This document shows positions 1,124 to 60,386 of a DNA stretch of 60,386 nt, one piece after another. Numbering within the stretch: the first letter of the stretch is position 1; each line of letters opens with the position of its first letter. Below the pieces are notes generated by a model. It saw only the letters and a list, made by a program, of their open reading frames with translations. It was not told where the DNA came from and made no database searches. The DNA is from a virus. The translations under genes were made by a program, and so were the position numbers. The stretch spans positions 1 to 60,386 of IMG/VR virus record IMGVR_UViG_3300048927_000480. One strand, written 5' to 3'.

Positions 1124-1305
1124 GCCCCTGGTTCCGCCGTAGCTCCGCGCCCGGCGAAGGTGACGACGAGCAGCAAGCCAACCTCGACCGCGCTGCGGAG
1201 GCGGCCGGCGAGGCACGCAAGCGCCGTGGGCAGGACTGGCGCCGCGGCGAGAACGAGCGCGCGGCCCGTGAGGAACCGCAACCACCGGACACGCCTCACC
1301 CATAA
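1120..1305 (+). CDS. Hypothetical small charged protein (61 aa)
   Basis: GTGA start/stop overlap with the upstream CDS. Followed by the hairpin at 1329-1363. Confidence 0.5.
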   Translation: MSPWFRRSSAPGEGDDEQQANLDRAAEAAGEARKRRGQDWRRGENERAAREEPQPPDTPHP

Positions 1306-1328
1306 CTCCGTTTCTGAACAGCGTTACC

Positions 1329-1363
1329 AAACCCCGTCACGGGCTCCCTGTGGCGGGGTTTCG
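1329..1363 (+). terminator. Putative intrinsic terminator ending the early arm
   Basis: AAACCCCGTCAC ... GTGGCGGGGTTT hairpin (one G-U pair) followed by TTTCG. Lies immediately after the last + strand CDS. Confidence 0.55.
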
Positions 1364-1365
1364 TC

Positions 1366-1790
1366 ATGCCCGGGGGAGGGCCGTGTCAAGCCCCCTGGGG
1401 CGCGTGTCCCCGGGCAGTACGCCCCGGTGGGGTGGCCAACGCCGACGCCGGGAGACACGGGCCCCCAGGGGCGCGCTCCGGGCGCGGGAGGCGGGGTGCC
1501 GGTGGCCTGCGTAGCGCGGGAGCGGAGGCGCACGGCGTGGGCCGGTGTGCGGTACGGGATGTACCCGCTACCCGAGGGCCCCTGGGAGGGGTGGTCACCA
1601 GGAGCAGGGGCTCTGTGACGGGTGCTCACTCTGGGTACACGGGGGCGCAGGGTAACGGGACGGTGTGCTCTTACCGAGGGGCGTGCTGCACAGGGCCGGT
1701 GGGACGGGGGTGTCCTGGTGGCGTGGTGCGTAGAGGCGTGGATATGGGGTGCTCAGGGGCGGGTTACGTTTTGCGGCGCCTCTTCTCTGC
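1366..1790 (+). other. G-tract-rich, strongly G-over-C skewed non-coding segment
   Basis: By eye, about 30 runs of 3 or more G versus about 8 runs of 3 or more C on the + strand. The ORFs here translate to Gly/Arg-rich non-protein-like strings. Confidence 0.7.
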
Positions 1791-2161
1791 CCTCTCCACG
1801 ACGGTCCATCTGTTCATGTGCGCAGGTATGCATATCACGCCACGTGCACCATGTATCTACGCACCGTGGCCCCTGGTGGCTACTCTACGCACACATATGC
1901 ATGTGCATATAGGCACGCACAGTGATCAAGGTGAGGCGTGCCTCAGCTCACGCTCCGTGCACGCGCCGGCCGCTAACCGGAGGGCCCCTCCCCCGTCGAA
2001 ATGTTCAAGATCGGGTGAGCTTTGGCCTGCTCAACTTTCCTGCGCGCCAAATTTCTCGATTTCTGGCTAGTTGATCTTGATCCAGGCGCCTGTTGACTCG
2101 TTTTCCGACCCGAATCCAGCGTAGTTTCGTCAGATTTCGGCTAGCAGCGCTAGCGTTCACC

Positions 2162-2226
2162 GGCGCACCGATGCGACCTGCGATGGCGCACGTTTTCAAG
2201 ATCATGGCGCACCGGGACGGCGCACC
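2162..2226 (+). repeat. Iteron cluster A: 4 direct copies of GGCGCAC(C)
   Basis: Copies at 2162-2169, 2185-2191, 2206-2213 and 2219-2226. Confidence 0.85.
2193..2213 (+). repeat. 21-bp repeat TTTTCAAGATCATGGCGCACC, copy 1
   Basis: Exact second copy at 2835-2855. Confidence 0.9.
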
Positions 2227-2775
2227 GTATTTCGTCACCAAATCGGGAGCGCTGAGTGGCTCGAGGAGCTCCGGAGCGCCGGCGCGGGTGTTCCGGGGCC
2301 CTCGGGTCGGGTTTCGCGGCTCTCCGTGACGCTGAACCCCGGGAATCGAGCTTCTGGAGTCAGGTAGCTCGGCCGGAGATGCTGATTCCCGGGGCTCATC
2401 TGCACGTGTAACTACGGAACCCGTCTCCGAGGGTCCTGATACCGGAGACGTAGTTCCAACGGCTCTCAGAGGCGCTGAAGCGGTTGCCTCTGATGCCCGG
2501 CCTGGATGGCGACAGCGGAACACGCACCGGCGTACCTCGCCCAGCCGTCGCTAGAGCCGGATCCCCGCGCCCAGCCGGCTCGCTGAACCGCCGAATCCAG
2601 CTCCGGATCTCGTCCCGGACCCGTGTCGCGTCGATTCGAGGCCCGAATCTGGTTGAACGTTTGATGAGCCTCGCGTGTGTACGCGTGACGCGCACGGCGC
2701 TTCGCGCTTCCTCACGCTCCGGGGAGTCGCTGACGCTCCTCCCCTACGGCGAGAGCGGTGATGAGGCCCATGATC

Positions 2776-2889
2776 GGCGCACCGTGTTTACTGCGCACTT
2801 CCGGCGCACCGCTACGACCTGGGGAATGTCCGATTTTTCAAGATCATGGCGCACCGTGGCGCACCGGCGGCGCACCCCCGGCGGCGCAC
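2776..2889 (+). repeat. Iteron cluster B: 7 direct copies of GGCGCAC(C) (one variant TGCGCAC)
   Basis: Copies at 2776-2783, 2792-2798 (variant), 2803-2810, 2848-2855, 2858-2865, 2869-2876 and 2883-2889. Confidence 0.85.
2835..2855 (+). repeat. 21-bp repeat TTTTCAAGATCATGGCGCACC, copy 2
   Basis: Identical to 2193-2213. Confidence 0.9.
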
Positions 2890-2890
2890 G

Positions 2891-2907
2891 GTCAACTTCA
2901 GGTTGAC
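2891..2907. promoter_or_regulatory. Central palindrome GTCAAC-N5-GTTGAC between the direct and inverted iteron blocks
   Basis: Arms at 2891-2896 and 2902-2907. Sits at the switch point of iteron orientation. Confidence 0.6.
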
Positions 2908-2942
2908 GATTCACTCTCTGCAGCCGGGCGATTACAAATCAC

Positions 2943-3052
2943 GGTGCGCCGCGAAAGTGCGCCGCCGGTGCGCCGCGTTTTCGGGCATTTCAGACATTCG
3001 CCAGGTCGCCACGCTGCGCCGCCCGTGCGCCGGAAGTGCGCCACGGTGCGCC
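2943..3052 (-). repeat. Iteron cluster C: 7 copies in inverted orientation ((G)GTGCGCC)
   Basis: Copies at 2943-2950, 2957-2963, 2967-2974, 3014-3020 (variant), 3025-3031, 3036-3042 and 3045-3052. Confidence 0.85.
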
Positions 3053-3139
3053 TCACCCATTCGGAGTAACGCGAAAACGGCCCTAGGTCTAGACCAATTT
3101 TCGGGTGATTTGTCCGAGTTCTAGGCCTAGGAAGGCATG

Positions 3140-3175
3140 AAAAAGGACCCGGGAACGTGCAGAACTCCCGGGTCC
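3140..3175 (-). terminator. Putative intrinsic terminator for the leftward replication operon
   Basis: On the - strand: GGACCCGGGA-loop-TCCCGGGTCC (10-bp perfect stem, 3145-3154/3166-3175) followed by TTTTT (complement of 3140-3144). Confidence 0.65.
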
Positions 3176-3290
3176 CTCGTAAACAAGCTGGCCCGACCAT
3201 GGACCGCAGACACGAGAAAGGGCCCTCGTCCCGGTACAGCACGAAGACCCTTCCCCCGAGGTGACTCGTGAAGAGTCTCCGCAGACCAGG

Positions 3291-3395
3291 TTACCGATGG
3301 CGCCGACGCCGCTGGAACCAGCCCCAGGCATACCCTCCGGCCAGCAGGATCACGCCGGCCACGGCAAGCAGGTCATGCGGCCAGGTGCCGCTCAC
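3291..3395 (-). CDS. Possible micro-protein (34 aa): one TM helix plus poly-Arg tail
   Basis: GTGA start/stop overlap with the CDS ending at 3392. Sequence VSGTWPHDLLAVAGVILLAGGYAWGWFQRRRRHR. Below the ORF-track size cutoff. Confidence 0.4.
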   Translation of the reverse strand: MSGTWPHDLLAVAGVILLAGGYAWGWFQRRRRHR

Positions 3396-3967
3396 AGGTC
3401 GACTCCGTCCAGCTCGTGCAGGGACCGCCCGGCCGGGGTCAGCTGGTACCGCCGGACCTCGCCCTCGGCCGCGGGAAGCGCCTCGATGAGTTTGCGTTCG
3501 TAGATCGCGGCGAATGCATCGCGCCAATGATCCCAGGCCTGTCGAGGTACCGGTGGCACCGGTTCTCCTGCAGCTACTTCCAGGACTTCGTTGAAGTACA
3601 ACGGATGGTTCGCGCCAGCGAAAACAGCCAGAATCCGCTTTTCGTACTCCGCAGACTTGACACCCGAGGTAAGCTCAGACGCGTCTGCGCTTACCTCGGC
3701 ACTTTTAGCCTGGTTTTCCCGGAACTTTTTCTTGAGCGATTCCCAGCGCATCAACGCACACTGCACCTCGTTCAGGAGCGCGGCGTCCGCCGGACTAATG
3801 ACGCGCTCTCCCGGCTGCATTCGCGTCCAGCCCTTGGTCACCAGGTTCTCGGCCGCGGTCCGGTAAGCATCGAATCCGCTGTGCAACAGGCGCTGTTTCT
3901 GGAGCCGGCAGAGATCCTCGACGAGTTCGTCGGCGTCCCGCTGCGCCCGGTCGATTGCCTCACCCAC
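3392..3967 (-). CDS. Hypothetical protein (191 aa)
   Basis: GTG 3967 preceded by GGAG; overlaps the upstream stop by 8 nt. An alternative ATG at 4030 lies inside the upstream CDS. Protein-like sequence. Confidence 0.7.
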   Translation of the reverse strand: MGEAIDRAQRDADELVEDLCRLQKQRLLHSGFDAYRTAAENLVTKGWTRMQPGERVISPADAALLNEVQCALMRWESLKKKFRENQAKSAEVSADASELTSGVKSAEYEKRILAVFAGANHPLYFNEVLEVAAGEPVPPVPRQAWDHWRDAFAAIYERKLIEALPAAEGEVRRYQLTPAGRSLHELDGVDL

Positions 3968-5231
3968 GGTGAACACTCCTCGCGTCGAATGAACACGGAC
4001 AGTGATTATCGGCGCCCAGACCCACGTCACGGATTGTGACGGAACAGCCTGATCCGTCCTCGTAGTGCGAGCTGGACAGGTGGTGGCAGCTTGGGCACCG
4101 CGCCGGTGGCGTGTACGCCTTGTCGGCGTCGTCCAGTGCGTCCGCGACGAGATGCTGCGCGCACCGTGGCCATCCGCGTTCCGACCGACCGACGGCGGGC
4201 TTGCTCACCGGCGGTTCGAGCGCGCTGCAGGTGCCGCACGGGACGATGTCGCCGGTCTCGTCGGTGACCACCACGGCGGTCAGGTCCGCGTCGAGGGTGT
4301 CGCCGAGGGTCCACAGGTGTTCGACCTCGGCGGCCAGGATTTGCGAGGCCTTGACCAGCGCCTCGAGAGGAACCGGATCGTTGGTCGTGTTCGTGCTCGT
4401 GATCAGCTCGAGCGCCCGCGTGACCTCGGACGTGTACTTCTCGCTGGCCGGCAGCGTACGCGGCATCCGGAGCCGGAGCGTCTGCTTCAGCGCCATGACG
4501 TCGTCCGGATCCGGGCCGATTGGCCGGGTCTTGGTGAAGAACTTGCCCAGCAGCTCAAGCGCTCGCTCGATTCGCTCGTCGCGCTCCCGGATCGTGCGGC
4601 AGGCTTGCTCGTACGCCCAGATCGTCGGGTACCGCGGCGCGACGTCCGGGATCTCGGCCAGCACCGCGCGCAGGTCTTCGTCGGTGATCCGGCGATCGCC
4701 ACCCCGGCCGTCGGCGATGTGCGTCGCCCAGTTCCGGGCTCCGGCCCCGGTGCGGCCGAGGTCGAGCAGCTGCACGAAGTGTATAACGTTATACACACCC
4801 TCGGGCAGCTTGCGCTCCGGAATCGGACCGGGCACTTGCCGCGTGACGTGGCCGGGGACCTCGCTCATCTGTGTCAGCACCGGCCGCAGACCGGCCTTTC
4901 GCCGGAGCCGGTGCAGCATCCGCGGCATCTCGGCGCGCGGGAACGTGGGAAACGGCTCGATGTCCGGGACGTCGATGGCCTCCATCACCAGCTCGTAGAC
5001 GCCGGTCTCGGTGATTTCGAAGCCCCGGATTTCCGGGTCCCAGGTGAACTGGATCAGCTCGTTGTCGCGGTATGGGGCGTGCAGCCGGCTCCGGACACCG
5101 CGCTCGTACAGCGCCTCGGCCAGCATCTCGAGGCCGGCGCGGGTATACGGCGCGGAGAGCCCGGATCTGCCGAGGTCGTGAACGAGCTGCATCAGCTCGA
5201 GCGCGCGGTAGGGATTGTCGGTAGGGGTCAT
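3960..5231 (-). CDS. Hypothetical protein with Cys-rich C-terminus (423 aa)
   Basis: ATG 5231 forms an ATGA overlap with the upstream stop. Upstream of that ATG the ORF translates to a Pro/Arg-rich, non-protein-like string. C-terminal CxxC and CPSC motifs. Confidence 0.75.
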   Translation of the reverse strand: MTPTDNPYRALELMQLVHDLGRSGLSAPYTRAGLEMLAEALYERGVRSRLHAPYRDNELIQFTWDPEIRGFEITETGVYELVMEAIDVPDIEPFPTFPRAEMPRMLHRLRRKAGLRPVLTQMSEVPGHVTRQVPGPIPERKLPEGVYNVIHFVQLLDLGRTGAGARNWATHIADGRGGDRRITDEDLRAVLAEIPDVAPRYPTIWAYEQACRTIRERDERIERALELLGKFFTKTRPIGPDPDDVMALKQTLRLRMPRTLPASEKYTSEVTRALELITSTNTTNDPVPLEALVKASQILAAEVEHLWTLGDTLDADLTAVVVTDETGDIVPCGTCSALEPPVSKPAVGRSERGWPRCAQHLVADALDDADKAYTPPARCPSCHHLSSSHYEDGSGCSVTIRDVGLGADNHCPCSFDARSVHRG

Positions 5232-5620
5232 GGTGTCCTCGTGACGGTGGTGAGTTTGCGGACCTGCAGCACGCCGTCGACGATCCGGCGACCGTACAGG
5301 TGGTCGGGGCAGTAGTAGAACCAGAACTCCCGTGGCGAGTGCTGGTTGGCGCGGTTGAGCTTGGCCACTGGTACGCCATCGCACTGCCGGTGCGCGGGCC
5401 GGCCGCCGCGGCAGGCGTATCCCGGGGTCGGCTGGTCCAGCAACACCCACCGCGGACTCGTCTCGGGCATCCAGACGTACTCCACGCCGGGCGGCGCGTT
5501 GCGGTAGTCCTTGTAGTCGGTCAACCAGGCTTCGGCGTCGGCCAGTTTCCGGCTCATTGTGGCGCCGCGCAGGATTTCCGCGGCCCGCCGGAGCAGGTCG
5601 TCGTGCACCGGCTCAGTCAC
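5228..5620 (-). CDS. Hypothetical protein (130 aa)
   Basis: GTG 5620 forms a GTGA overlap with the stop of 5613..6026. The N-terminal extension to 5932 overlaps a better ORF in another frame. Confidence 0.65.
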   Translation of the reverse strand: MTEPVHDDLLRRAAEILRGATMSRKLADAEAWLTDYKDYRNAPPGVEYVWMPETSPRWVLLDQPTPGYACRGGRPAHRQCDGVPVAKLNRANQHSPREFWFYYCPDHLYGRRIVDGVLQVRKLTTVTRTP

Positions 5621-6026
5621 CGGTCGCACACCCTCCGACCCAGTGCCGTCCTTCACGCTTCCAAAGGCACTGTGGTGCCTTTTTCGCGTCCTCGACGGTC
5701 CAGCGCCGGCCGTCGGCGAGCGTGCTGTTGAACGCCAGGGCCCCGAATGGTGACAGCGCCACCAGGCCCTTGCAATGGTGGCACTGGGCGCCCGTGAGTA
5801 ATCGTTTGCCCAGTTCTTCGAGCGCCTCGATCGGTCCGCGCTGACGCTCGACGATGATCCGGGCGCCCTTGTACTGGACGCTGGCGTACCAGTCGGCCTG
5901 GTCAGGAGGCACGTCGTCGTGCAGGTAGCCAATGTCCAGGCCGGTCGCGCCGGTCCGTCCGACGAGGTCGACGGTGGCGATCATCGCGTCTTCTTGTTCC
6001 GGGGTGAATGGGGCTTTACTCGCCAC
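5613..6026 (-). CDS. Hypothetical protein (137 aa)
   Basis: Full ORF with protein-like composition. Tightly packed with its neighbours. Confidence 0.7.
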   Translation of the reverse strand: MASKAPFTPEQEDAMIATVDLVGRTGATGLDIGYLHDDVPPDQADWYASVQYKGARIIVERQRGPIEALEELGKRLLTGAQCHHCKGLVALSPFGALAFNSTLADGRRWTVEDAKKAPQCLWKREGRHWVGGCATGD

Positions 6027-7368
6027 GGCGGGCCTCCTTGTCCTGCTCGAGCACCCAGCTGATCGCCTGGTTCCGGGCGTCCAGCGACCCGGGCTTGCCG
6101 CCGAAGAGCGGGTGCTGGTGCTTCGGCGCGGAACCGTGCACCGCGAGCCAGCGGCCGTCGCCGCCGGCGTGCTCCGGGTCCAGCCACACCCAGCCGATGA
6201 CCTCGCTCTTGAGTCCGAGCACCTTCTCCGCGTCGTACGGCACGGTCAGCGGGCGGCCGTCCCGCAGCGCGTTCGCGCGTACCCAGGCCTCGGCGCCGTC
6301 GCGTGAGCCGAACCGCGGCCGGTTCTGCTCGTTGTCGTCAACGGCCGCGACCCACTCGCGCTCGTGTTCCAGGCAGTGCCGCGACTGCAGCTCCCAGACG
6401 TGGCCGATCACCGCGCCATCGGCATCCTCGATCGGCTGTTCCTCGTACCGGTCGTCTTCAGAGATGATCTTGATCTGGGACGGGTCCGTGCCCTGGAGCC
6501 AGTCGCTCATGCTCCGCGGGCCGCCGACGTTCTCCCCGAGTCGAACCGGCACCTGCTCGGCGGCCCGTCGGCGCGCGCCCGGGACCCAGCCAGCGTCGAC
6601 GAAGGCATCGGCCAGTGCCACCACGTGCTCCGCGTGCAGTTTCGCCCCCGTCACCTGCGGAAGCAGACGCCGCAGGTCCGCGGCGAACGCGGCCCGCCAC
6701 GAATCCACGGTGGTCAGCGCCTCGAGCTGCCCGCCGAGCATGACGAGGCCTTCGCCGGCCGCCGGAATCGATTCGAGAGCCGTCCCGATGACCGGGCCGG
6801 CGGCGAAGGCCTTCAGCGCCTTGTCCGTCGTCTGCTTGCCAGCATCACGGCATTCCTGGCACCGGAGGTCATTCGGGTCCGTGGCCGCCCGGGTGCGGTC
6901 GTCCAGCTGGCACACGCGGCACGGCACCTGGCCCGGGGTGAGCGGCCCGGTCTCGGCGAGGTCGTCGAACTTCGCCGCGAGCCGGTCCTGTAGACCGGGG
7001 TACCGCTGCTCGAGCGGCGATTCGGCGAAGGCCTTCAGCTCCGCGGCCGCGCCGAAGTTGCCCTCGCCGACCTCATCGGCCGCCATCCGGCCCGCCAGCT
7101 CGCGCATCTCGGCGTTCGGTTGCCGGAAACGTGCTGCTCGTTCGAGGGCATCTTCAGGTCCGGGCGTGTTGTCGAACAGCTCCGGCACCACCCCGACTGG
7201 CCGCGGCACCTCGCCGGACCCGGCGCAGCGGCCGATGCCCGGGAGATCGTGCGCGACCAGCGTTCCGGCAACCAGTGGGTATGACCCGCCGCAGCCATGG
7301 CACGGGAAGACCGGTTCCGGTGTTTCTGCAGCCTTCCGGAAGGCATTTGTCGTGTTTTCGTCCATCAT
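6016..7368 (-). CDS. Hypothetical protein with CxxC pairs (450 aa)
   Basis: ATGA overlap with the PrimPol-helicase stop. Motifs CHGCGG and CRVC..CQEC suggest zinc ribbons. Confidence 0.75.
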   Translation of the reverse strand: MMDENTTNAFRKAAETPEPVFPCHGCGGSYPLVAGTLVAHDLPGIGRCAGSGEVPRPVGVVPELFDNTPGPEDALERAARFRQPNAEMRELAGRMAADEVGEGNFGAAAELKAFAESPLEQRYPGLQDRLAAKFDDLAETGPLTPGQVPCRVCQLDDRTRAATDPNDLRCQECRDAGKQTTDKALKAFAAGPVIGTALESIPAAGEGLVMLGGQLEALTTVDSWRAAFAADLRRLLPQVTGAKLHAEHVVALADAFVDAGWVPGARRRAAEQVPVRLGENVGGPRSMSDWLQGTDPSQIKIISEDDRYEEQPIEDADGAVIGHVWELQSRHCLEHEREWVAAVDDNEQNRPRFGSRDGAEAWVRANALRDGRPLTVPYDAEKVLGLKSEVIGWVWLDPEHAGGDGRWLAVHGSAPKHQHPLFGGKPGSLDARNQAISWVLEQDKEARRGE

Positions 7369-10253
7369 TTGTCCTGTTCAGGTGTGGTTTCGCTGGTAGC
7401 GGTCCCGTCGGGGCGGAACCCGGTGAAACGGGTGGTCGACACGGGCCCCCGAGCCCGCGACGCCGCGGACCGGGCGGCTTCGGCCCGGCCTGCGTCGGTG
7501 ATGGCGTACTTCACTCCAGGACTGGGCATCTGCTGACCATGTTCGCCGGTGACGATGAGCTCGCCGACGTCCTCGATCTGGCCGCCGCGGACCAGCTCGT
7601 CGAACGCCTCTTTCCAGGCCGCGATCGTCGAGCCGCCGGCCCGCTTACGGGTGTCGCGCGCGGTGCTGATCGCCTTCGTCTTGGACAGCCCCTCGGGCGT
7701 GGCCATGAACACGACCAGCAGCTTTTCGCGCTTGGACACCGTCGAGTCGCGCAGGACCTCCGAGTGCTCGGACTCCGGGTCCTCCTGCTCGCGGGCGGTG
7801 ACGAGGTACCGCATCGGCAGCTCAAGCCGCCGGGCGTCGTCGCGCCAGACCTCGCGGTGAACCCAGTAGCTGCCCGAGGTCTGGCCGGAGACGTCGACGC
7901 GCAGGTCCACCGTCGTCCGGCCGGTCGGGTCGTCGGCGTACGGCGCCGCCGGCGTCCACTTGTCGACACCGACGTTGATCAGCACCCGGCCCCACTCGGC
8001 CAGGCCCGAGCCCGACCAGCGCTCGACGCCCTTGCCCTCGCCGCTTTTGTTCCAGTGCGCCGTGATCAACAGCGCCGAGTCCAGCTCCTGCGCGATGCCC
8101 TGGAGGTTCGAGAGCACGGTGCCCATCTGCGCGAGGTTCTTGCCGTCGGCGCCTTCGCCGGCGCTCATGTACCAGGGGTCGATGTAGACCAGGTCCGGGT
8201 TGAACACGACCAGGTCCTCGTACAGCCGGTTGACCGCCTCGGGCTGGTCGAGCTTGCTCGCGCCCTCCTGCACGTGGATCCGGCTCATCAGCTCCTCGGT
8301 GAGCTCGACGTGCTTGGCCGCCGCGACCGCCTCGATGCGATCGATGAACTCGACCTTGTCGCCCTCGTTATGCATCGCCGCAACGCGGCCTTGCCTCACC
8401 GGGATCAGCCCGAGCCACGGCACGCCGGCCGCGATCGACACGGCCAGATCGCACATCAGGAACGTCTTGCCGGCCTTGTACTGCGCGCCGAGCACGCCGT
8501 AGCTGCCCGCGCGCAGCACGCGGTCGATCAGGAACTCGGCCGGCTTCTCCTTCGCCGCCTTCCGCAGCAGCGCCAGCGGCTCGAACCCGCGGGCGGCCAC
8601 CCGCGCCGCATACGGGTACCGGTGCTCGGTCCACCGCCGCTCGGCCTCCGCCCGGACGACAAGGTCCTGGAACCGTCCCCGGACGAGGTTTTCAAAAGGG
8701 CCGTACGGATCGACCACCCCGGGCCCGGCCGCCAGCGCCGGCGGCACCATCGGCGGGACTGGCCCGGCGCCAGGTGGTGCGCCGACCGGCGGTAGCCCCT
8801 GCAGTCCCGGCGGTCCGGCGCTGGCCGGCTCGTACCCGAGCGTCTGCAGCCCGGCGGCGTCGAGTTGGTCCTCGTGCTGTTCGGCCCAGGCCTCGTACTC
8901 GGGAATGGCTGAAGTTTCCTGAACCTGCGCCGGACCGTGCGCCGCCGGTGCGCCATGATCGTGACAGGGGACGTTTCCGCTGGTCGAGTCGGTGCGCCAC
9001 GGTGCGCTCATGTACGCGGCGGTATCGTCAGCGCCACCGCGGTCGTAGTACCAGGTGTCGCCGTTCACGGGCGCCGCGGCGAGCGGGCCGGCCAGCGCCG
9101 ACGGCACGCCGGGGAGCGCCACCAGCGGCGGCGCTTCCCGCGAGATCCCCTCCGCACGGCAGGCCAGCGCGACGTTGCCGCCGTGGTCCCGCAGCGCCAC
9201 GTACTGGATCTTGGTGAAGGTCTTCTCGCCGAACGGCGTGTTGATCAGGAACTCGGGCGGGTTGTCGGTCCAGATGTGCAGCGGGCAGTGCCCCGGCGCG
9301 TCGTCGTACTCGCTGCAGCCGACGTCGTGCGCGGTGGCCGACTTGAACGAGGCGTGCACGCCGGGCGCCGTCCAGATCCCGCAGCCGCAGGAGTCGACGA
9401 TCCCGGTGTCGAACCAGCCGTCCGGCTCGAGCAGCTCGGCCCAGGTGACCGCGACCGACCAGCCGTCGATGTGCGCTTCGCCGGTGAACCCGCTCCCGCC
9501 GGCCGCCCGACGGCTCTCCTGCGCCTTCGCGCGCGAGCGCCGCTCGACGATGTAGTTGACGATCTGCTGGAGCAGCCAGTCCGGCGCCGGGTGGATGTCA
9601 CCGGTGAGCAGGTACGGGCCTTCCTCGCGCACCGAGGGCGGCACCAGCACCTGCCGGTTCGCCCACATCGCGATCCACCCGGACGGGTGCTTCATCGCCC
9701 CCTCGTCCCCGGGCAGGACGAGACTCGGCGGGAGCGCGAACCAGTAGTGGCCGCCGTTCTTGTGCTTCCAGGCACCATCGGCCGCCATCACCCCGGGCGA
9801 GGCCACCGTCATCCCGTACGGCAGCGGCTCACCGGTCGCCGCGAGCCAGCTGGCGGCGAAGGCCTCCTTCTCCGCGTCGGTGTCGACGTCGACGACGATC
9901 ACCCGGCTGGCGCCCAGCTCGACGCCGAGGTTGATCCGGCCGTGGTCGCGCACCAGCCGGCGGATGATCCGGTCGGAGTCCTTCTCGTCGGTGATCGCGT
10001 GCTTGATCGCGCACTCGTGCCGGACCAGGTCCCACCGGCGTCGGCCGGCCGCCCGAGCGCGCTCCTGCGCCTCCTGGTCAGCGCGCTTGACGTCGCGCTG
10101 GGGCAGCGTGCACATCGGCCGCTTGGTCCCCGGCAAGCACGGCACGATCGCGAAACCGGCCCGGATCGCGTACCGCGCGAGGTTGACGAGCGGATCCTCC
10201 CCGCCGGGCACTGCTGCGCCGAACACCGCGGCGAAGCTCGATTCCGATATCAT
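7365..10253 (-). CDS. Bifunctional primase-polymerase (PrimPol) / P-loop helicase fusion (962 aa)
   Basis: N-terminus: FAIVPCLPGTKRP, VVDVDTD (DxD) and GGHYWF, typical of PrimPol. Middle: Walker A GAQYKAGKT with RepA/DnaB-like RecA-fold context. ATG 10253 has GAGGAGAGG upstream; the ORF-track start at 10274 is TTG. Confidence 0.85.
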   Translation of the reverse strand: MISESSFAAVFGAAVPGGEDPLVNLARYAIRAGFAIVPCLPGTKRPMCTLPQRDVKRADQEAQERARAAGRRRWDLVRHECAIKHAITDEKDSDRIIRRLVRDHGRINLGVELGASRVIVVDVDTDAEKEAFAASWLAATGEPLPYGMTVASPGVMAADGAWKHKNGGHYWFALPPSLVLPGDEGAMKHPSGWIAMWANRQVLVPPSVREEGPYLLTGDIHPAPDWLLQQIVNYIVERRSRAKAQESRRAAGGSGFTGEAHIDGWSVAVTWAELLEPDGWFDTGIVDSCGCGIWTAPGVHASFKSATAHDVGCSEYDDAPGHCPLHIWTDNPPEFLINTPFGEKTFTKIQYVALRDHGGNVALACRAEGISREAPPLVALPGVPSALAGPLAAAPVNGDTWYYDRGGADDTAAYMSAPWRTDSTSGNVPCHDHGAPAAHGPAQVQETSAIPEYEAWAEQHEDQLDAAGLQTLGYEPASAGPPGLQGLPPVGAPPGAGPVPPMVPPALAAGPGVVDPYGPFENLVRGRFQDLVVRAEAERRWTEHRYPYAARVAARGFEPLALLRKAAKEKPAEFLIDRVLRAGSYGVLGAQYKAGKTFLMCDLAVSIAAGVPWLGLIPVRQGRVAAMHNEGDKVEFIDRIEAVAAAKHVELTEELMSRIHVQEGASKLDQPEAVNRLYEDLVVFNPDLVYIDPWYMSAGEGADGKNLAQMGTVLSNLQGIAQELDSALLITAHWNKSGEGKGVERWSGSGLAEWGRVLINVGVDKWTPAAPYADDPTGRTTVDLRVDVSGQTSGSYWVHREVWRDDARRLELPMRYLVTAREQEDPESEHSEVLRDSTVSKREKLLVVFMATPEGLSKTKAISTARDTRKRAGGSTIAAWKEAFDELVRGGQIEDVGELIVTGEHGQQMPSPGVKYAITDAGRAEAARSAASRARGPVSTTRFTGFRPDGTATSETTPEQDK

Positions 10254-10378
10254 GCTGTCAGCCTCTCCTCGCAAGACGGGCGATCAGCGGAGACTCCGGG
10301 CCGAGTTGAGGCCGGCCCGGAGCTTCGCATCTCGATCACGATACGCGCCGATCGCGCTCCGACACGGTTTCGTCGACC

Positions 10379-10618
10379 TCACCCATCCTGCCGCGGCGCG
10401 GCGGGCCGGAGAACCTCGTGACTGAATCGGTACACATGGTGCCGACCGTCCTCTGTGGACTTCTCCGGCGCATGGACATAGACCAGAATTTTGCCAGGAT
10501 CCGTTCGGGACGGACGGAGAACAGCGAGACAGGCAAGAGCCGTCCGTCCGCGGTCACCGTCGAACTGCCCGCCGACAAGTTCGTATGTGCCAACGCCTTC
10601 CGGCATATTTTCCTCCAT
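10379..10618 (-). CDS. Hypothetical protein (79 aa)
   Basis: Positional GC pattern sampled by hand at 10441-10500 favours this frame (middle codon position lowest GC). Acidic, protein-like sequence. Start uncertain (10618 or 10606). Confidence 0.55.
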   Translation of the reverse strand: MEENMPEGVGTYELVGGQFDGDRGRTALACLAVLRPSRTDPGKILVYVHAPEKSTEDGRHHVYRFSHEVLRPAAPRQDG

Positions 10619-10700
10619 GCCCGTACATTTCGGATGATCTGAGTCAGTACGGCAACTCCAGATCCTGCTACGAAGAGCAAAGTCCCCCAAAAGTTGAAAC

Positions 10701-12545
10701 TCATGCCGCGGCCCACCTTTCACCTAGGTCCAGCATGTCTGTCTTCAAAACGGGCACCCTCCCCGAGTGCTTGATGAGTCGTTCCGGCGGTGTCTGCATG
10801 ATCCGCCGGATGTCGTGAGCAGCCTCAGTCGCGCAGATGACCTCGTCGTGCATCGGGAAGTACACCGCGTCCGAAAGCCCGGCCTCGATGATTCCGATGA
10901 GCGCCTCGGCGAGCACGTCATACGCTGATCCCTGGACGAAGTAGTTCACGCCCTTGTGCGCGGCTACGCTTTGCCGGCCTTCGTACCAGCCGAGCGGGAT
11001 CGGTATGATACGACCGGAAACCGTTGGCACCAAACGGTAAAGCTTCGCTATCTCCCGGAGCTTGAAAGTGAACTGCAGCACCTCGGGCATCGTGCCGAAG
11101 ACCGCGTCCTTGATCCGCATTGCCTCGGCGGTGCCAACGCCGAGCTTTGACGCGGTGAGGTCCAGACCCTGTCCGTACAGTGTGCCGAGGGTCTGTGTCT
11201 TCGCCGGTTTCCGGCCGATGTGCGCGACGTTTCCGACGATCAGGTACAGGTCGTCGGTGCTGTTTTCGTACATCGAGATGATGCCGTTGTCGCCGGCAAC
11301 GTAGGCAATGGTGACCGGTTCGATCTGGGACCAGTCGATAGAGGTTCCGTTGCCGTCGAACAAGATGACGCCACGAGCCCCGGGCGGGAACTGCTGCAGC
11401 GGCGGGTCGCCGACCGACATGCGGCCCGTGGTGGCGCCGAAGTAATTGATGGTCGGGTGCAGGCGCAGATCACCGTTGACGTCGTACTCGGCCAGATCGC
11501 GTGCTTTGACAAGGTAATCCCGATAGGTCTTCGTCTTCTCCTTGTGCCAGTTGAATTCCTGCGCAACAGGGTGGAGCAGCTTGGCGAGGTCCTCTTTTTT
11601 CCCGGACAGGAGATCGGTTTTCTTGGTACGTGGGTAGTTGGCCGGGATCACACCTTGCGGCTCGAGCCAGCGCAACAAGCTCTGTGCGTTGCCGGGGTCG
11701 ATGTTCAGCCGTTCGAGCCGGGTGGCCTTCCGGTCCAGCTCGGCGGCGAACTGGACGTTGTAGCGGTCGAGGTAGTCCAGGTCGACGCGGTAGCCCTTGA
11801 TCGCCTTGGCCAGGCTCATCCGGTTCAGGCGCTGTTCGCGCTCGATCAGCCGCCAGGCCTCGCCGCCGGTGACACCCCACTCCGGGTACGGGTGGTCGGT
11901 GAGCCGGTGGTACGCCGCCGCCCGGAACGGCGCGTCGAGACGCGCCGTGACGATCGCGTCCGCCGCCGCGCCGCGGAGGTAGACCGGGCGATCGAGGTCG
12001 AACTCCCGGTACATCTGCTCCTTGCCGCGCATCCCGACTGCCTTGGCCGAGGTGAGCATCCCGTCCTTGTCGGTCGAGTAGCCCAGGTACCGCTCAGCGC
12101 AGTGGGCCAGGTTCTTCGAGACCAGGTTGTCCGGCTCGGCGAGCCGCGCGGTGAGCACGCCGTCGCGGATCTTCGCCGCGTGGTGCGGACGGATGAGCCG
12201 GTTCATCGCGAGGTTCGGCACATCGAAGCAGGAGTAGTGGAACACCAGCTCCTGCGCCTCGTCGATCATCCACCGGATGTAGTCCCATTGCACCGCGTCG
12301 CGCGGGTCGAGGATGACCGCGCAGTCCCCGTGCGGCAGCGGCGAGAAGATCACACACTTGAGGTTCCGCCCGGCTGCCTGCAGACCTTCGGACTCGATGT
12401 CGCAGGCCAGCGGGACGCGGCGCCGGATCAGCTCGATGCCGGCGTTGCACGCCGCGTCGCGGCCGACGTAGACCCAGGCGCCGAGGCTCTCGAGCCACTG
12501 CTTCCCGGTCCACGCCGGCCGCACGGGCGGGCGGAACCCCCTCAT
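10701..12545 (-). CDS. DNA polymerase I, family A, with 3'-5' exonuclease domain (614 aa)
   Basis: Exo I LACDIESEG. Motif A DWSQIEP. Motif B RKPAKTQTLGTLYGQG. Motif C MHDEV. Confidence 0.9.
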   Translation of the reverse strand: MRGFRPPVRPAWTGKQWLESLGAWVYVGRDAACNAGIELIRRRVPLACDIESEGLQAAGRNLKCVIFSPLPHGDCAVILDPRDAVQWDYIRWMIDEAQELVFHYSCFDVPNLAMNRLIRPHHAAKIRDGVLTARLAEPDNLVSKNLAHCAERYLGYSTDKDGMLTSAKAVGMRGKEQMYREFDLDRPVYLRGAAADAIVTARLDAPFRAAAYHRLTDHPYPEWGVTGGEAWRLIEREQRLNRMSLAKAIKGYRVDLDYLDRYNVQFAAELDRKATRLERLNIDPGNAQSLLRWLEPQGVIPANYPRTKKTDLLSGKKEDLAKLLHPVAQEFNWHKEKTKTYRDYLVKARDLAEYDVNGDLRLHPTINYFGATTGRMSVGDPPLQQFPPGARGVILFDGNGTSIDWSQIEPVTIAYVAGDNGIISMYENSTDDLYLIVGNVAHIGRKPAKTQTLGTLYGQGLDLTASKLGVGTAEAMRIKDAVFGTMPEVLQFTFKLREIAKLYRLVPTVSGRIIPIPLGWYEGRQSVAAHKGVNYFVQGSAYDVLAEALIGIIEAGLSDAVYFPMHDEVICATEAAHDIRRIMQTPPERLIKHSGRVPVLKTDMLDLGERWAAA

Positions 12546-12691
12546 GACTCGTGCTCCGAGCTGTCCTCGACAACCGAGCCGTCGACGAAGGTCTTGCCGT
12601 CCACACCAGGAATACGGCCGCAGACGTACGCCACGTAGCCGTCGTAGTCACACGGCTCGTTGTCTTCGTCAGGCAGCTCGGGCGCGGTCAC
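12542..12691 (-). CDS. Hypothetical acidic micro-protein (49 aa)
   Basis: GTGA overlap at its start and ATGA overlap with the polymerase start. Very high third-position GC. Below the ORF-track cutoff. Confidence 0.5.
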   Translation of the reverse strand: MTAPELPDEDNEPCDYDGYVAYVCGRIPGVDGKTFVDGSVVEDSSEHES

Positions 12692-12933
12692 CTGACGAAC
12701 TCCGCGGAGTTGATCTCGTGAGTGTGTGCGCCGGTCAGCTTCGCGTCCTGGAAACCGTCCTCGCGCAGCCGGGCGCGGTTGCCGGCCTCGTAGACCGCTA
12801 CGGCGAGGTCGTCCATCGTTCGGGCGAAGTCAGGACGGACCTCTCGCAGCACTTCCTGCAGCTTCGGCTGAGAGTTCCACTCGGCGACGACGTCACGCGA
12901 GACACGAAGGATCTGGGATCGGGCGCTGCCCAT
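12688..12933 (-). CDS. Hypothetical protein (81 aa)
   Basis: Complete ORF, tightly packed in the operon. Confidence 0.65.
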   Translation of the reverse strand: MGSARSQILRVSRDVVAEWNSQPKLQEVLREVRPDFARTMDDLAVAVYEAGNRARLREDGFQDAKLTGAHTHEINSAEFVR

Positions 12934-12936
12934 GAG

Positions 12937-13161
12937 TCAGCCGATCCGGGCCAGCACGTACGGCTGAGCGTCGTCGGCCATGGCCGCGTGCGAGGTGTTC
13001 TTCAGCTCACGGCACCCGATCTGCTTCCGGTCGTCGATGCCCGGACTCCACTGACCGGTCGGCGAGAGGATCTGTTCGACCAGAACGGTGCGGGAGTCGC
13101 CGACGCCAGCCGCCGCGATGACGGCGGCAGTTTCCTTGTACCGGCAGAGAAAAAGCTTCAC
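12937..13161 (-). CDS. Hypothetical protein (74 aa)
   Basis: GTG 13161 forms a GTGA overlap with the stop of 13158..13505. The longer ORF start is non-protein-like. Confidence 0.55.
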   Translation of the reverse strand: MKLFLCRYKETAAVIAAAGVGDSRTVLVEQILSPTGQWSPGIDDRKQIGCRELKNTSHAAMADDAQPYVLARIG

Positions 13162-13505
13162 TTGCTGCTCTCCTTGAGCTTCTCGAGGCGGTCTTGGCGT
13201 GCCTTGAGCACGCTGCAGCCCCAGGGGGCCTGAGTCCGCTTGTCGTTGGGGTTGGGGAAAACCCGATGCACGTCGTTGCATTCATCGCACTCGTACCACG
13301 CGATCGGTTTCTCATCGGGGTCGATCTCCGGAGCCTCGGCGGCCCAGAAGACCTTGTACTCGCCCAGGTAGTCCGCGATGAACTTGCGGAGCCGGACGCT
13401 GCCGTTTGACTGCTCCACCAGCGGCACGAGCTGGAGGAACGGCTGCCAGAGCTCGTCGGGCGCGAGGAACGTTCGCGCCTTGTCGCCGGGAGATGCTGCT
13501 GTCAT
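13158..13505 (-). CDS. Hypothetical protein with CDEC motif (115 aa); first gene of the leftward operon
   Basis: ATG 13505 (MTAASPGDK...). Adjacent to the AT-richer divergent control region. Confidence 0.65.
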   Translation of the reverse strand: MTAASPGDKARTFLAPDELWQPFLQLVPLVEQSNGSVRLRKFIADYLGEYKVFWAAEAPEIDPDEKPIAWYECDECNDVHRVFPNPNDKRTQAPWGCSVLKARQDRLEKLKESSK

Positions 13506-13528
13506 AAGTACGTACGCTAGCACAGATA

Positions 13529-45805: not shown

Positions 45806-45975
45806 CCTTTGCGGTTACTCGTGGTCCAGAACAGGACAGCCATCTCCGCGGCGAGAACATCCGAGCCTCGCAGACCCAGGATCAGCACCACGAGCAAGAC
45901 ACCAGCGAACGGTCCCGCACTGACCCAGGCATCGGCTGCTCGGCCGGGGATATCCCAGTCAGTGCGGGCACTCAT
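45796..45975 (-). CDS. Possible single-TM micro-protein (59 aa)
   Basis: ATGA overlap with the HTH gene stop. TM segment GPFAGVLLVVLILGL. Below the ORF-track cutoff. Confidence 0.5.
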   Translation of the reverse strand: MSARTDWDIPGRAADAWVSAGPFAGVLLVVLILGLRGSDVLAAEMAVLFWTTSNRKGWL

Positions 45976-46253
45976 GAACGTGGTCCGACGCGACCGGGCA
46001 TCGCCGGTGGGATGTTGAACTTTTTCTCGAGGAAGGCACGCAGCTGGGCGCCGTAGTCGGTGAGCGGTTTGCCGCGGGAGTTGGTGCCGTCGACGGGTGT
46101 GTTGAATGCCTTCATCTGTTTCGAAGCCGGCCAGCCCAGTTCCTCTTCGATCTTGAGCATCGACTCCTTACTCGGTGAGCGGTTTCCGCTCATCCAGTGG
46201 AAAAGCGTACCGCGGTGCACCCCCAACTTGTCCGCGATCTCCTGGATTTCCAT
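45972..46253 (-). CDS. XRE/Cro-type helix-turn-helix transcriptional regulator (93 aa)
   Basis: N-terminal IQEIADKLGVHRGTLFHWMSG is a classic HTH. First gene of the leftward block, next to divergent promoters. Apparently leaderless. Confidence 0.75.
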   Translation of the reverse strand: MEIQEIADKLGVHRGTLFHWMSGNRSPSKESMLKIEEELGWPASKQMKAFNTPVDGTNSRGKPLTDYGAQLRAFLEKKFNIPPAMPGRVGPRS

Positions 46254-59957: not shown

Positions 59958-60371
59958 GTGACCAGCACCCTTAACAACGTCACCACGCTCCCAGTCCGCC
60001 GCGGTGCCCGCGTGCTGTCCGAGCTCGGGCACATGCGGGGCGTGGGCTACGTGGAAGGCTTCTCGTACAACCCCGAGCACGCCCCGGGCGGTGTGCGGCC
60101 GGTGCCGGTGGTGCGCTGGGCCAGTGGCGTGGTGAGCTGGCACGAGCCGAGCGAACTCGTGGCCGTGGAGCTGGGCACTGTGCTCACCGAAGACGTGCAC
60201 AACAACGTGGGCCGGTTGTGCATGGTGCCGCTCTACCTCGTCGGCGCCGGCGAGGAGGGCCGTACGTGGCGCCTCGTGTCCGCGGTGAGCGGCAACCGTT
60301 ACCTGGTGGTCAACCTGCGGACGGGGCGTGTGCTGGTGCTGGAGCACCGGAGCTTGACCAACCTGTACTGA
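59958..60371 (+). CDS. Hypothetical protein (137 aa)
   Basis: GTG 59958 sits behind the same CGGAGGTCACC RBS context as ATG 762. Its 3' end is duplicated at nt 1-112. Confidence 0.6.
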   Translation: MTSTLNNVTTLPVRRGARVLSELGHMRGVGYVEGFSYNPEHAPGGVRPVPVVRWASGVVSWHEPSELVAVELGTVLTEDVHNNVGRLCMVPLYLVGAGEEGRTWRLVSAVSGNRYLVVNLRTGRVLVLEHRSLTNLY

Positions 60372-60386
60372 GTCCACAGTGGACGC
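60260..60386. repeat. Terminal exact duplication, copy 2 (identical to 1..127)
   Basis: Direct comparison of both window ends. Confidence 0.95.

Follow-up and report, generated by a model that had tools for sequence, protein, structure and literature searches.

The largest non-coding gap in the genome of an actinophage-like virus (~1305-3290), where its leftward and rightward gene blocks converge, holds a dense field of short repeats, which raises the question of what such a field does and which protein reads it. The virus is IMG/VR record IMGVR_UViG_3300048927_000480, and "the window" denotes that whole stretch of DNA, positions 1-60,386, to which all coordinates refer. The repeats are copies of GGCGCAC(C) at 2162-3052. 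A preliminary description had proposed a replication-origin iteron field, a centromere-like partition or packaging site, or a regulatory sink, had seen no adjacent gene that obviously encodes a binder, and had not recognised the layout from any described origin. In this study, we examine the array, its relatives and the proteins that accompany it. The comparisons argue that the array is a phage iteron replication origin at which the Prim-Pol/AAA_25 primase-helicase of the same genome would load itself, as at the Rep/ori of staphylococcal pathogenicity islands (SaPIs) or with the alpha protein of P4, and we give this reading, which rests on sequence and analogy, a probability of about 0.7. Similar arrays lie at the 3' ends of homologous helicase genes, the repeated word changes while the surrounding scaffold stays, and the winged-helix region of the helicase diverges alongside. 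From these observations we infer the identity of the binder, the position of melting and a start of replication at the array. Taken as an origin, it is of a familiar kind in a little-studied family, and its layout has clear precedents.

The iteron array and its parts

The 18 copies counted in the preliminary description, as four direct, seven direct and seven inverted, were all recovered, 16 of them exact and two as in-register variants with one mismatch. Exact copies of GGCGCAC start on the plus strand at 2162, 2185, 2206, 2219, 2776, 2803, 2848, 2858, 2869 and 2883, and lie on the minus strand at 2944, 2957, 2968, 3025, 3036 and 3046; the variants are TGCGCAC at 2792 (plus) and GGCGCAG at 3014 (minus). 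The extended iteron consensus is YGGCGCACCG. The copies are in places 10-11 bp apart, as had been claimed, with spacings of 10, 11 and 14 bp over 2848-2883 and of 11, 11 and 10 bp over 3014-3046. The palindrome GTCAAC-N5-GTTGAC (2891-2907), at which the orientation was said to switch, is present, but the symmetry centre of the inverted array lies at ~2916 and not at the centre of the palindrome (2899).

Across the genome, GGCGCAC occurs 33 times against 27 +/- 5 in shuffled sequence, which is no overall excess, and the signal is therefore purely local: 16 of the 33 exact copies fall within 891 bp (binomial P = 4.6e-21). The remaining 59.5 kb holds 17, against ~27 expected for the whole genome, a number not above chance and probably below it. 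An unbiased scan of all 7-mers ranks the array first among the clusters of the genome, with 12 copies per 400 bp versus 7 for the runner-up. A GGCGCAC pair at 27193 and 27211, 18 bp apart within a structural gene, is probably due to chance.

The region is gene-free, as first described. No open reading frame (ORF) of coding codon usage was found in it, its insertions and deletions relative to the closest relative do not come in multiples of three, and neither a tRNA nor an Rfam family was recognised. The tRNA search over the gap returned only sub-threshold chance matches, the Rfam search only sub-threshold ones (the Streptomyces small RNA Scr3202 at 1327-1420, 38 bits versus a gathering score of 52), and a sigma-70 scan no promoter. 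As single-stranded DNA, 2770-3060 folds as a single long imperfect hairpin of -108 kcal/mol, compared with -67.8 +/- 4.0 in shuffles (z = -9.95).

That closest relative is the viral contig IMGVR_UViG_3300003320_000767, whose loci are L010, L151 and L330 (the prefix L numbers the loci compared here). It is ~80% identical to the window in the polymerase and the primase-helicase and contains the homologous gap. The parts of the region are as follows, from left to right.

2000-2140, no strand: lower-G+C flank to the left of block A (40-bp segments with G+C of 0.42-0.53 versus 0.66 for the genome; the segment at 2049 ranks within the lowest 25 of the genome)
2162-2225, plus strand: block A, four direct GGCGCAC(C) at 2162, 2185, 2206 and 2219
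2175-2182: GACCTGCG box within block A
2193-2205: TTTTCAAGATCAT box within block A, fused to the third iteron
2233-2679, no strand: non-coding spacer from block A to block B, ~71% identical to L010 and of similar length in L331 and L332
2680-2770, no strand: near-invariant 91-bp block, with 2-3 differences from L010 in an otherwise 71% identical region
2721-2744: hairpin GGGGAGTCGCTGACGCTCCTCCCC within the 91-bp block (folding z-scores of -2.5 on one strand and -3.1 on the other)
2776-2889, plus strand: left arm of block B, seven direct copies at 2776, 2792 (variant), 2803, 2848, 2858, 2869 and 2883
2816-2823: GACCTGGG box within the left arm of block B
2835-2847: TTTTCAAGATCAT box within the left arm of block B, fused to the iteron at 2848
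2890-2943, no strand: centre of block B, the palindrome (2891-2907) followed by 2908-2943, with G+C ~0.5, at the tip of the long hairpin
2944-3052, minus strand: right arm of block B, seven inverted copies at 2944, 2957, 2968, 3014 (variant), 3025, 3036 and 3046
3001-3007, reverse: GACCTGG box within the right arm of block B
3053-3140, no strand: lower-G+C flank to the right of block B (G+C 0.42-0.55), with small palindromes CCTAGG and TCTAGA; the segment at 3084 likewise ranks within the lowest 25 of the genome
3146-3176, minus strand: likely intrinsic terminator, GGACCCGGGA, an 11-nt loop and TCCCGGGTCC, then TTTTTC, with the array on one side and the last gene of the operon on the other

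Block A repeats the left half of block B in compact form; the two have CCGGCGCACCG-N-CGACCTG and TTTTCAAGATCATGGCGCACCG in common (repeat families D3, D4 and D9), and the CAAGATCAT boxes are likewise elements of the region. The left flank is a candidate unwinding region, and its 42-bp stretch 2040-2081 (CTGCGCGCCAAATTTCTCGATTTCTGGCTAGTTGATCTTGAT) has one mismatch to L010 and homologous stretches in L332 and L331; within it, TTGATCTTGAT at 2071-2081 reads TCTTGATA in L010. A 22-mer of the GC-rich hairpin (2721-2742) recurs in the equivalent gap of L326 as GGGGAGTCGCTGGCGCTCCTCC (21/22 identical, E = 1.6e-4), and also in L329/L332 and L331, despite their different iterons. The hairpin core GGGGAGTCGCTGACGCTCC might serve as a signal for priming or loading, or else represent a small RNA. 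The element at 3146-3176 reads as the likely intrinsic terminator of the leftward replication operon. The terminator scan missed it because its loop exceeds 8 nt, and it was found by direct reading of the sequence; L010, L331 and L332 have an equivalent hairpin at this position.

Conservation in the closest relative

Between the window and L010, identity is 92% over the iteron bases and 72% over those of the spacers (Fisher P = 2.9e-6). In block A all 28 iteron bases are identical, compared with 56% of the spacer bases. The variants at 2792 and 3014 are perfect GGCGCAC in L010, where one iteron copy has been deleted. The stretch 2908-2943 has one difference, and the arms of the palindrome are kept with a changed loop (ttcag versus cacga). 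The GGCGCAC repeats are clustered, non-coding and selectively conserved.

Cultured phages gave no match to 1700-3400 in nucleotide searches in near and distant modes. The 17-mers GGCGCACCGTGGCGCAC and TCAAGATCATGGCGCAC returned mostly chance matches in large collections, and for TCAAGATCATGGCGCAC in metagenomes there was no relative among the matches listed.

Arrays at AAA_25 helicase genes in other genomes

When viral contigs were scanned for GGCGCAC in three closely spaced copies, most matches were coding tandem repeats. The scan also gave four unrelated loci with non-coding arrays of mixed orientation (L147, L100, L097 and L129), each of which adjoins an AAA_25 gene, with or without Prim-Pol. 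The bias of a motif-led search was removed by a protein-only search of genomes, for which an alignment of the L147 and L100 proteins served as query and which returned 32 actinobacterial loci, 31 of them usable. The 7-mer cluster that is strongest over the whole ~11-kb locus lies across the 3' end of the AAA_25 gene in 21 of these 31 (binomial P = 6.6e-12, with a null probability of 0.136). By inspection, five further loci contain genuine arrays, at the 3' end in L155, overlapping the end of the maximal ORF in L177, and 0.9-2 kb away in L171, L176 and L183; in L100, L172, L174 and L175 the arrays overlap the end of the ORF. Altogether, the comparison took in ~40 unrelated phages and prophages of Actinobacteria, and in most of them a homologous AAA_25 helicase gene has a similar array at its 3' end or close to it. 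In the plasmid collection a single distant AAA_25 relative was found, and it was uninformative.

The repeated word varies by locus and with the protein (GGCGCAC, CGCGCAC, GCGCACT, GGACACT, ACGCACT, CCGCACT, GACAGAT, AACGAAC and others), and the layout recurs: copies point both ways, and in a core hairpin inverted repeats enclose a GC stem whose centre is TATA-like. All ten proteins scanned from the genome loci match AAA_25 and have variable N-terminal modules (Prim-Pol, Zn-ribbon/Toprim or none); one of the ten gave weak winged-helix matches near its C-terminus.

Iteron fields also occur upstream of the AAA_25 gene or ~2 kb downstream of it (L133 1-170, L171 3170-3480 and L183 8160-8420; CACGAAC, AACGAAC); L133 begins with a field of 20-bp repeats, and its second set consists of TTGAAATCATTAGCAGC repeats. 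Separately, an AT-rich phage contig (L052 311-523, IMGVR_UViG_3300007863_000018) carries 23 head-to-tail copies of GTGCGCC(TG/TGC) at a spacing of 8-10 bp, beside a very AT-rich region and a terminator. That array is purely direct, unlike the one in the window, and is possibly another kind of origin.

Exchange of the iteron on a constant scaffold

A protein search with residues 520-969 of the window's primase-helicase returned homologues at 34-80% identity. The contigs of those at 45-52% identity (P0002-P0005), when looked up, have a gap of 280-370 bp directly 3' of the gene, and in four of five loci this gap holds the strongest 7-mer cluster of the locus (CGAGGGT, GGACGAC, GGGGTCT and GGCGGGA, words unrelated to the iteron of the window in an arrangement like its own); the fifth, L325, has a GGGGTCT array as in L324. 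Boxes of the window's type stand in several of these gaps, namely CAAGATCATGG fused to an iteron in L321 and L322 and GACCTGCGG in L321. In L324 and L325 (JGI 3300072492 and 3300072490), a ~12-kb element with integrase, recombinase, Prim-Pol-helicase and presumed origin occurs in tandem, either as a tandem insertion or as an assembled concatemer of a circular element.

The relatives that we compared in detail are listed below with the identity of their helicase region (residues 520-969), the iteron, the place of the putative origin, and the protein identity to the window in the helicase core and in the predicted winged helix.

L330: helicase region 84%; iteron GGCGCAC, the same as in the window; 4 kb downstream of the helicase stop; core 0.88, winged helix 0.88, putative recognition helix 0.95
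L331: helicase region 64%; iteron GGAATCACGA; 1.6 kb downstream of the stop; core 0.73, winged helix 0.53
L332: helicase region 61%; iteron GGAAC(A); 2.8 kb downstream of the stop; core 0.69, winged helix 0.48
L333: helicase region 52%; iteron GGACGAC; abutting the stop; core 0.63, winged helix 0.19
L334: helicase region 50%; iteron CGAGGGT; abutting the stop; core 0.60, winged helix 0.17

L330, L331 and L332 are syntenic relatives that retain the scaffold of the window. In the window, L331 and L332 its parts follow in the same order: a low-G+C stretch with TTGATC, a left block with GACCTGCG, a ~500-bp spacer, the hairpin GGGAGTCGCTGACGCTCC, direct iterons, TTTTCA(A/T)GATCA(T/G)GG fused to an iteron, the centre, inverted iterons, the terminator and a small membrane-protein gene. 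Since these three loci combine one scaffold with different iterons, the repeated word is exchangeable and the frame is not. When the iteron changes, the winged helix diverges more than the core, which is suggestive, at the level of sequence, of a winged helix that sets iteron specificity.

The primase-helicase as proposed initiator

The proposed initiator is the product of the Prim-Pol plus AAA_25 (RepA-like) primase-helicase gene at 7365-10274 on the minus strand, 969 residues in length, with Pfam matches to Prim-Pol (6e-16) and AAA_25 (3e-23) and a PHROG match to DNA polymerase/primase (2e-109). An AlphaFold2 model of residues 520-969, built from a 12-sequence alignment (predicted local distance difference test score, pLDDT, of 75), has a RecA-type core followed by a helix-helix-helix-strand-strand arrangement at residues 848-925 (nucleotides 7500-7733), which is predicted to be a C-terminal winged helix. 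The best structural match by target template-modelling score is RSF1010 RepA (1g8y, 0.66, E = 1e-8, Foldseek), and others are 1olo, RadA/Rad51 and DnaB/gp4. The protein likely reads the iterons through this predicted domain. Although the preliminary description had seen no neighbouring candidate, a likely binder is thus encoded in the same operon.

The gene itself contains a copy of the origin box, at 8937-9008 on the minus strand, in the linker between the two domains. In the gene sense it runs GGCGCAC ... CACGATCATGGCGCACCGGCGGCGCAC and codes for ...CHDHGAPAAHGP...; CACGATCATGGCGCACCGGCGGCGCAC lies at 8937-8975, two more iterons follow up to 9008, and the pattern is GATCATGGCGCACCG-N-GGCGCAC. 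The copy is kept in the closest relative as CAAGATCATGGCGCACCGTCGGCGCAC (L186/L330) and is absent at the homologous position in L331 and L332, which have other iterons. It may be an autoregulatory or secondary site, or the trace of a recombination with the origin.

The adjacent 194-residue protein, whose C-terminus looks winged-helix-like by eye, was considered as a binder and set aside. It has no Pfam, PHROG or PDB match and no similarity to AAA_25 proteins, and its single-sequence AlphaFold2 model was unusable (pLDDT 42). Relatives that keep the origin keep this protein poorly or not at all, with 55% identity in L330, only a weak partial match in L332 and no copy in L331, and it is therefore not a conserved partner.

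A model of initiation, and what weighs against it

In the proposed scheme, the C-terminal winged helix of the primase-helicase would recognise the YGGCGCACCG iterons, and copies 10-11 bp apart on one face of the helix, on the opposed arms of block B, would bring two helicase rings face to face. The lower-G+C centre (2890-2943) would then melt, possibly extruded as the tip of a cruciform, and the rings would load themselves, with the Prim-Pol domain making the first primers and the family-A polymerase extending them. Block A (2162-2225), as a shortened copy of half of block B, would probably be an auxiliary or control site, comparable to P4 crr or to the extra iterons of plasmids. The elements that do not depend on the iteron (the GGGGAGTCGCTGACGCTCC hairpin, the CAAGATCATGG box fused to an iteron and the GACCTGSG box) could be read by conserved machinery, as priming or loading signals, or by a host factor. 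The origin-like anatomy of the region, with opposed iterons, a lower-G+C centre and flanks, and strong cruciform potential, supports the scheme.

Several observations weigh against it. The centre, at a G+C of ~0.5, is moderately low relative to the genome (0.66) and is not a classical AT-rich unwinding element. Many arrays of the family hold the core hairpin 5'-GTGCGCC-stem-TATA-stem-GGCGCAC-3', and the window has a palindrome of the opposite polarity only, GGCGCAC and then GTGCGCC. Across loci the accessory boxes are enriched only 2.5-3-fold (P = 1e-3 to 2e-4), and the cultured Prim-Pol phages CloverMinnie and NTR1 have no such arrays near their Prim-Pol genes. The array stands 4.3 kb from the helicase gene instead of adjoining it, and is displaced too in L330 (4 kb), L331 (1.6 kb) and L332 (2.8 kb). 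The divergence of the winged helix is suggestive and no proof, because C-terminal domains often evolve fast for other reasons. Moreover, the winged helix of the window has no detectable sequence similarity to those of L147 and L100, which go with the same 7-mer, so that shared words can arise independently. Finally, the cumulative GC skew has its maximum at 1776, which by the bacterial rule would mark a terminus and not an origin; the maximum is produced by the G-rich stretch 1350-1800, and GC skew gives no usable origin or terminus signal here.

Beyond the window, we tentatively consider a modular origin design, not yet described, that actinobacterial phages and prophage-like and integrative elements would share: a conserved scaffold combined with exchangeable iterons that are read by a fast-evolving winged helix. 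The odds are somewhat against so general a design. Equally tentative are the parts that would make up its scaffold, the GC-rich hairpin GGGGAGTCGCTGRCGCTCC, the CAAGATCATGG box fused to an iteron, the GACCTGSG box and the central palindrome, whose readers would be the conserved Prim-Pol/RepA-like motor or a host factor, for which they would serve as priming and loading signals. If true, replicon specificity would be predictable from sequence, with natural switches between close relatives (GGCGCAC, GGAAC, GGAATCACGA), and in the lineage of the window the origin would have shifted by kilobases relative to its gene, been duplicated into two blocks and left behind a box copy in the initiator gene, a copy that hints at autoregulation or origin-mediated recombination.

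The lytic replication origins of actinobacteriophages are almost unmapped. A full-text search of a limited literature set gave no paper that describes iteron origins linked to AAA_25 primase-helicases in actinophages, and the RepA- and RNA-based prophage origins of mycobacteriophages (Wetzel et al., PMC7157519) are a different system. If the array is an origin of the proposed kind, it supplies a sequence-level rule for finding origins beside AAA_25 primase-helicase genes in actinobacterial phages, prophages and integrative elements, as well as candidate minimal replicons (an origin plus one gene) for vectors of Streptomyces, Mycobacterium and their relatives. The natural swaps of specificity would make initiator-iteron recognition directly testable.

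Alternative explanations

The array could be bound by another protein in a role other than initiation, as a fork trap or terminus at converging transcription units, a regulatory or titration sink, or a partition site. Ter/RTP fork traps have two opposed sets of sites, which the array resembles; it lies where rightward and leftward gene blocks converge, the cumulative GC-skew maximum is at 1776, and the genome encodes further DNA binders, such as the HTH_3 protein at 45972-46253. We nevertheless regard such a role as unlikely, since arrays of the same design stand directly 3' of AAA_25 genes in small prophage-like elements, where convergence is no issue, and the iteron changes along with the winged helix of the helicase. 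The copies outside the array are at or below chance, and the array is therefore not part of a dispersed operator system. The centromere-like partition site of the preliminary description finds no partner, with no ParA-type Walker motif (KGGxGK[ST]) in any predicted protein and no ParB among the scanned proteins. A packaging site (cos or pac) bound by a small terminase subunit is less probable again. P1 pac and lambda cosB have repeated subunit-binding words on both sides of the cut site, in the phiRv-like small elements L147, L326 and L321 the array sits between the helicase gene and HNH/terminase genes, and the 127-bp assembly overlap of the window does not fix the physical ends. The large terminase gene (18754-20484), however, is 15.7 kb away across an operon of opposite strand. 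In relatives the distance from array to terminase varies from 0.4 to >3 kb while the array abuts the helicase stop codon, its place tracking the helicase gene, and the gene that comes after the array in L129 is of the VRR-NUC type and not a terminase gene.

That the repeats are a non-functional expansion or recombination scar in a long intergenic region is strongly disfavoured, and we rate it the least probable of these explanations by some way. In its favour, the non-coding region is of unusual length, L010 has lost one copy and block A resembles a partial duplication of block B; set against this, the cores are selectively conserved relative to the spacers, the scaffold is kept across relatives whose helicase regions are 61-84% identical, and the same design occurs in dozens of unrelated loci. 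Replication might also start at the array in another manner. In a rolling-circle origin, a hairpin would expose a pC194-like site (TCTTGA/TCTTGAT, which the CAAGATC boxes read as on the opposite strand) and a repeat-bound initiator would nick it there, as proposed for pMEA300 RepAM, which has a CTTGAT-like site with flanking 8-bp inverted repeats in a hairpin (PMC2440964). The GATCTTGA boxes fused to iterons (2193-2205 and 2835-2847), TTGATCTTGAT at 2071-2081, the recurrence of boxes beside iterons in L321, L322, L177, L100 and L332, and the strong hairpin potential of 2770-3060 all fit such a site, and the predicted fold places the 2835-2847 box in an internal loop. Yet no nicking enzyme was identified, and no nuclease of the HUH or Rep_1/Rep_2 type seen, among the proteins scanned; the protein that goes with the array combines a primase with a hexameric helicase, the toolkit of primed theta-type initiation; a genome of ~60 kb is large for rolling-circle initiation; and the enrichment of the boxes is modest. 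RepAM, moreover, belongs to another family, DUF3631 (PMC3218068), which none of 14 scanned AAA_25-family proteins matches. We consider rolling-circle initiation improbable, to nearly the same degree as a packaging site and by a hair less so. The replication-origin iteron field of the preliminary description is, by comparison, well supported by the arrays at AAA_25 genes, the iteron swaps and the divergence of the winged helix.

Genome setting of the array

Bases 1-127 of the window are identical to 60260-60386. This identity is the overlap of a circular assembly, 127 being a common maximum k-mer, and the window is therefore a complete genome of ~60.26 kb (60,259 bp), circular and actinophage-like, with a G+C of 66%. 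Genes were called by codon usage, and the main ones are these.

3291-13523, minus strand: leftward gene block, which includes the family-A DNA polymerase and the Prim-Pol/AAA_25 primase-helicase
3291-3392, minus strand: last gene of the leftward operon, a membrane peptide of ~33 residues (…LLAVAGVILLAGGYAWGWFQRRRRHR), overlapping the preceding stop codon
10701-12545, in the leftward block: family-A DNA polymerase gene
13833 through the end of the window to ~1305, plus strand: rightward gene block, with DEAD-box helicase, large terminase, portal, capsid, tape measure and lysis genes
18754-20484, in the rightward block: large terminase gene

The leftward replication operon ends with the array, which lies 4.3 kb downstream of the primase-helicase gene with 5-6 genes between. 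The genes at 3392-7368 (minus strand) encode products of 450, 137, 142, 423 and 194 residues without family matches; in the relative with an 80% identical polymerase most of them reach only ~50% identity, and L331 and L332 lack the majority. This interval from initiator to origin is a cargo slot of fast turnover. A protein-based search found no relatives of the 423-residue product. The gene of the ~33-residue membrane peptide is conserved in L010, L331 and L332 and contains a 24-nt tandem duplication (3338-3383). For the Prim-Pol domain, the matches in phages of Nocardia, Gordonia, Rhodococcus and Mycobacterium reach no more than 41% identity.

Three further stretches were observed. A gap of 447 bp with lower G+C and no convincing ORF (10254-10700) separates the polymerase gene from the primase-helicase gene; in L321, L322 and L147 the equivalent position upstream of the helicase gene holds a small HTH_17 gene, unlike in the window, where none was found upstream of the primase-helicase. 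Just beyond the last rightward gene, 1350-1800 is G-rich (GC skew up to +0.28, G+C ~0.75). An alternating purine-pyrimidine tract with many nested palindromes (ATGCAT, CATATG, TGCATGTGCATAT) occupies 1815-1925, is partly conserved in L010 and L332, and could be prone to form Z-DNA.

Comparison with known systems

Partition and packaging systems differ from the array in their surroundings. A ParABS locus has parA and parB beside the repeats; in the window no ParA-type Walker motif occurs in the predicted proteins and no ParB among the neighbouring genes scanned. A cos or pac site adjoins terminase genes, and here the large terminase is 15.7 kb away. The stoperators of Cluster A mycobacteriophages are many asymmetric sites dispersed throughout the genome and oriented with transcription, whereas the copies in the window are clustered, with 17 outside the array against ~27 expected genome-wide.

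Replication systems are closer. The alpha protein of P4 is one primase-helicase polypeptide with a C-terminal iteron-binding domain, and its octamer iterons lie in direct and inverted orientation at ori and crr, ~4.5 kb apart; it combines a DnaG/Toprim-type primase with an SF3 helicase. Blocks B and A of the window may be analogous to ori and crr, but the protein is Prim-Pol plus AAA_25, and the blocks are 550 bp apart as opposed to ~4.5 kb. The oriV of RSF1010 has iterons together with the hairpin priming signals ssiA and ssiB. The helicase core of the window is structurally closest to that of RSF1010 (1g8y, 1olo) and belongs to the same Pfam family, AAA_25, and the invariant GGGGAGTCGCTGACGCTCC hairpin could act as an ssi-like priming signal. 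In RSF1010, however, RepC separately reads 20-bp iterons and primase and helicase are separate proteins, whereas in the window these functions are apparently fused in a protein with its own winged helix; no separate RepC/RepB'-like gene was noticed near the array, in a proteome that was partly scanned. ORF904 of the archaeal plasmid pRN1 joins a Prim-Pol to a helicase that has a winged-helix domain for DNA binding, and a cis-essential sequence lies downstream of the gene (PMC4234260, PMC2777425). The fusion of Prim-Pol, helicase and winged helix is the likeness to the window; the SF3 helicase, the archaeal setting, the stem-loop origin and the lack of a large iteron field are the differences.

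Two described systems provide precedents for the layout, which had been thought unlike any known origin. RepAM of pMEA300, an actinomycete integrative conjugative element, binds as purified protein to identical direct and inverted 8-bp repeats able to form a hairpin at the 3' end of rep, beside a CTTGAT-like motif (PMC2440964). The window resembles it in its direct and inverted repeats and its stable hairpin (-108 kcal/mol, z = -9.95). RepAM is defined by DUF3631, PF12307 (PMC3218068), which Pfam does not find in the protein of the window or 13 relatives at E-value limits of 0.01 or 0.1; these have AAA_25 with or without Prim-Pol or Toprim instead, so that RepAM is a resemblance and not a case of membership.

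The second precedent is the SaPI Rep/ori. SaPI Rep is a replicative helicase that acts as initiator, its C-terminal winged helix binding 6-12 iterons in an ori just downstream of rep (PMC9371898). That ori comprises two opposed sets of iterons with a central AT-rich region, two hexamers load themselves, and in SaPI5 a primase is fused to Rep (PMC9371898). The window is like it in its 7 + 7 opposed iterons around a centre, its fused primase-helicase and the predicted C-terminal winged helix. Of the marks of such a system, the multiple repeats of 5-8 bp are represented by 18 copies of GGCGCAC(C), the two or more opposed iterons on each side of an AT-rich centre by 7 + 7 around 2890-2943, a centre that is only moderately AT-rich, and the helicase ATPase with a C-terminal winged helix by the Pfam AAA_25 match and the AlphaFold2 prediction. 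A putative ori directly after the helicase gene is seen in the relatives of 50-52% identity (L321, L322, L333 and L334) and in 21 of the 31 genome loci, and in the window the distance is 4.3 kb. The window differs further in having a second block, a conserved GC-rich hairpin and conserved boxes. The motors differ as well: SaPI Rep belongs to the pre-sensor-II-insert clade of AAA+ proteins, whereas the motor of the window is of the RecA-type AAA_25 family and RSF1010 RepA-like. If the proposed reading is correct, the phage system would be a RecA-type counterpart to the self-loading AAA+ helicases of the SaPIs, with the same origin architecture built on a different motor.

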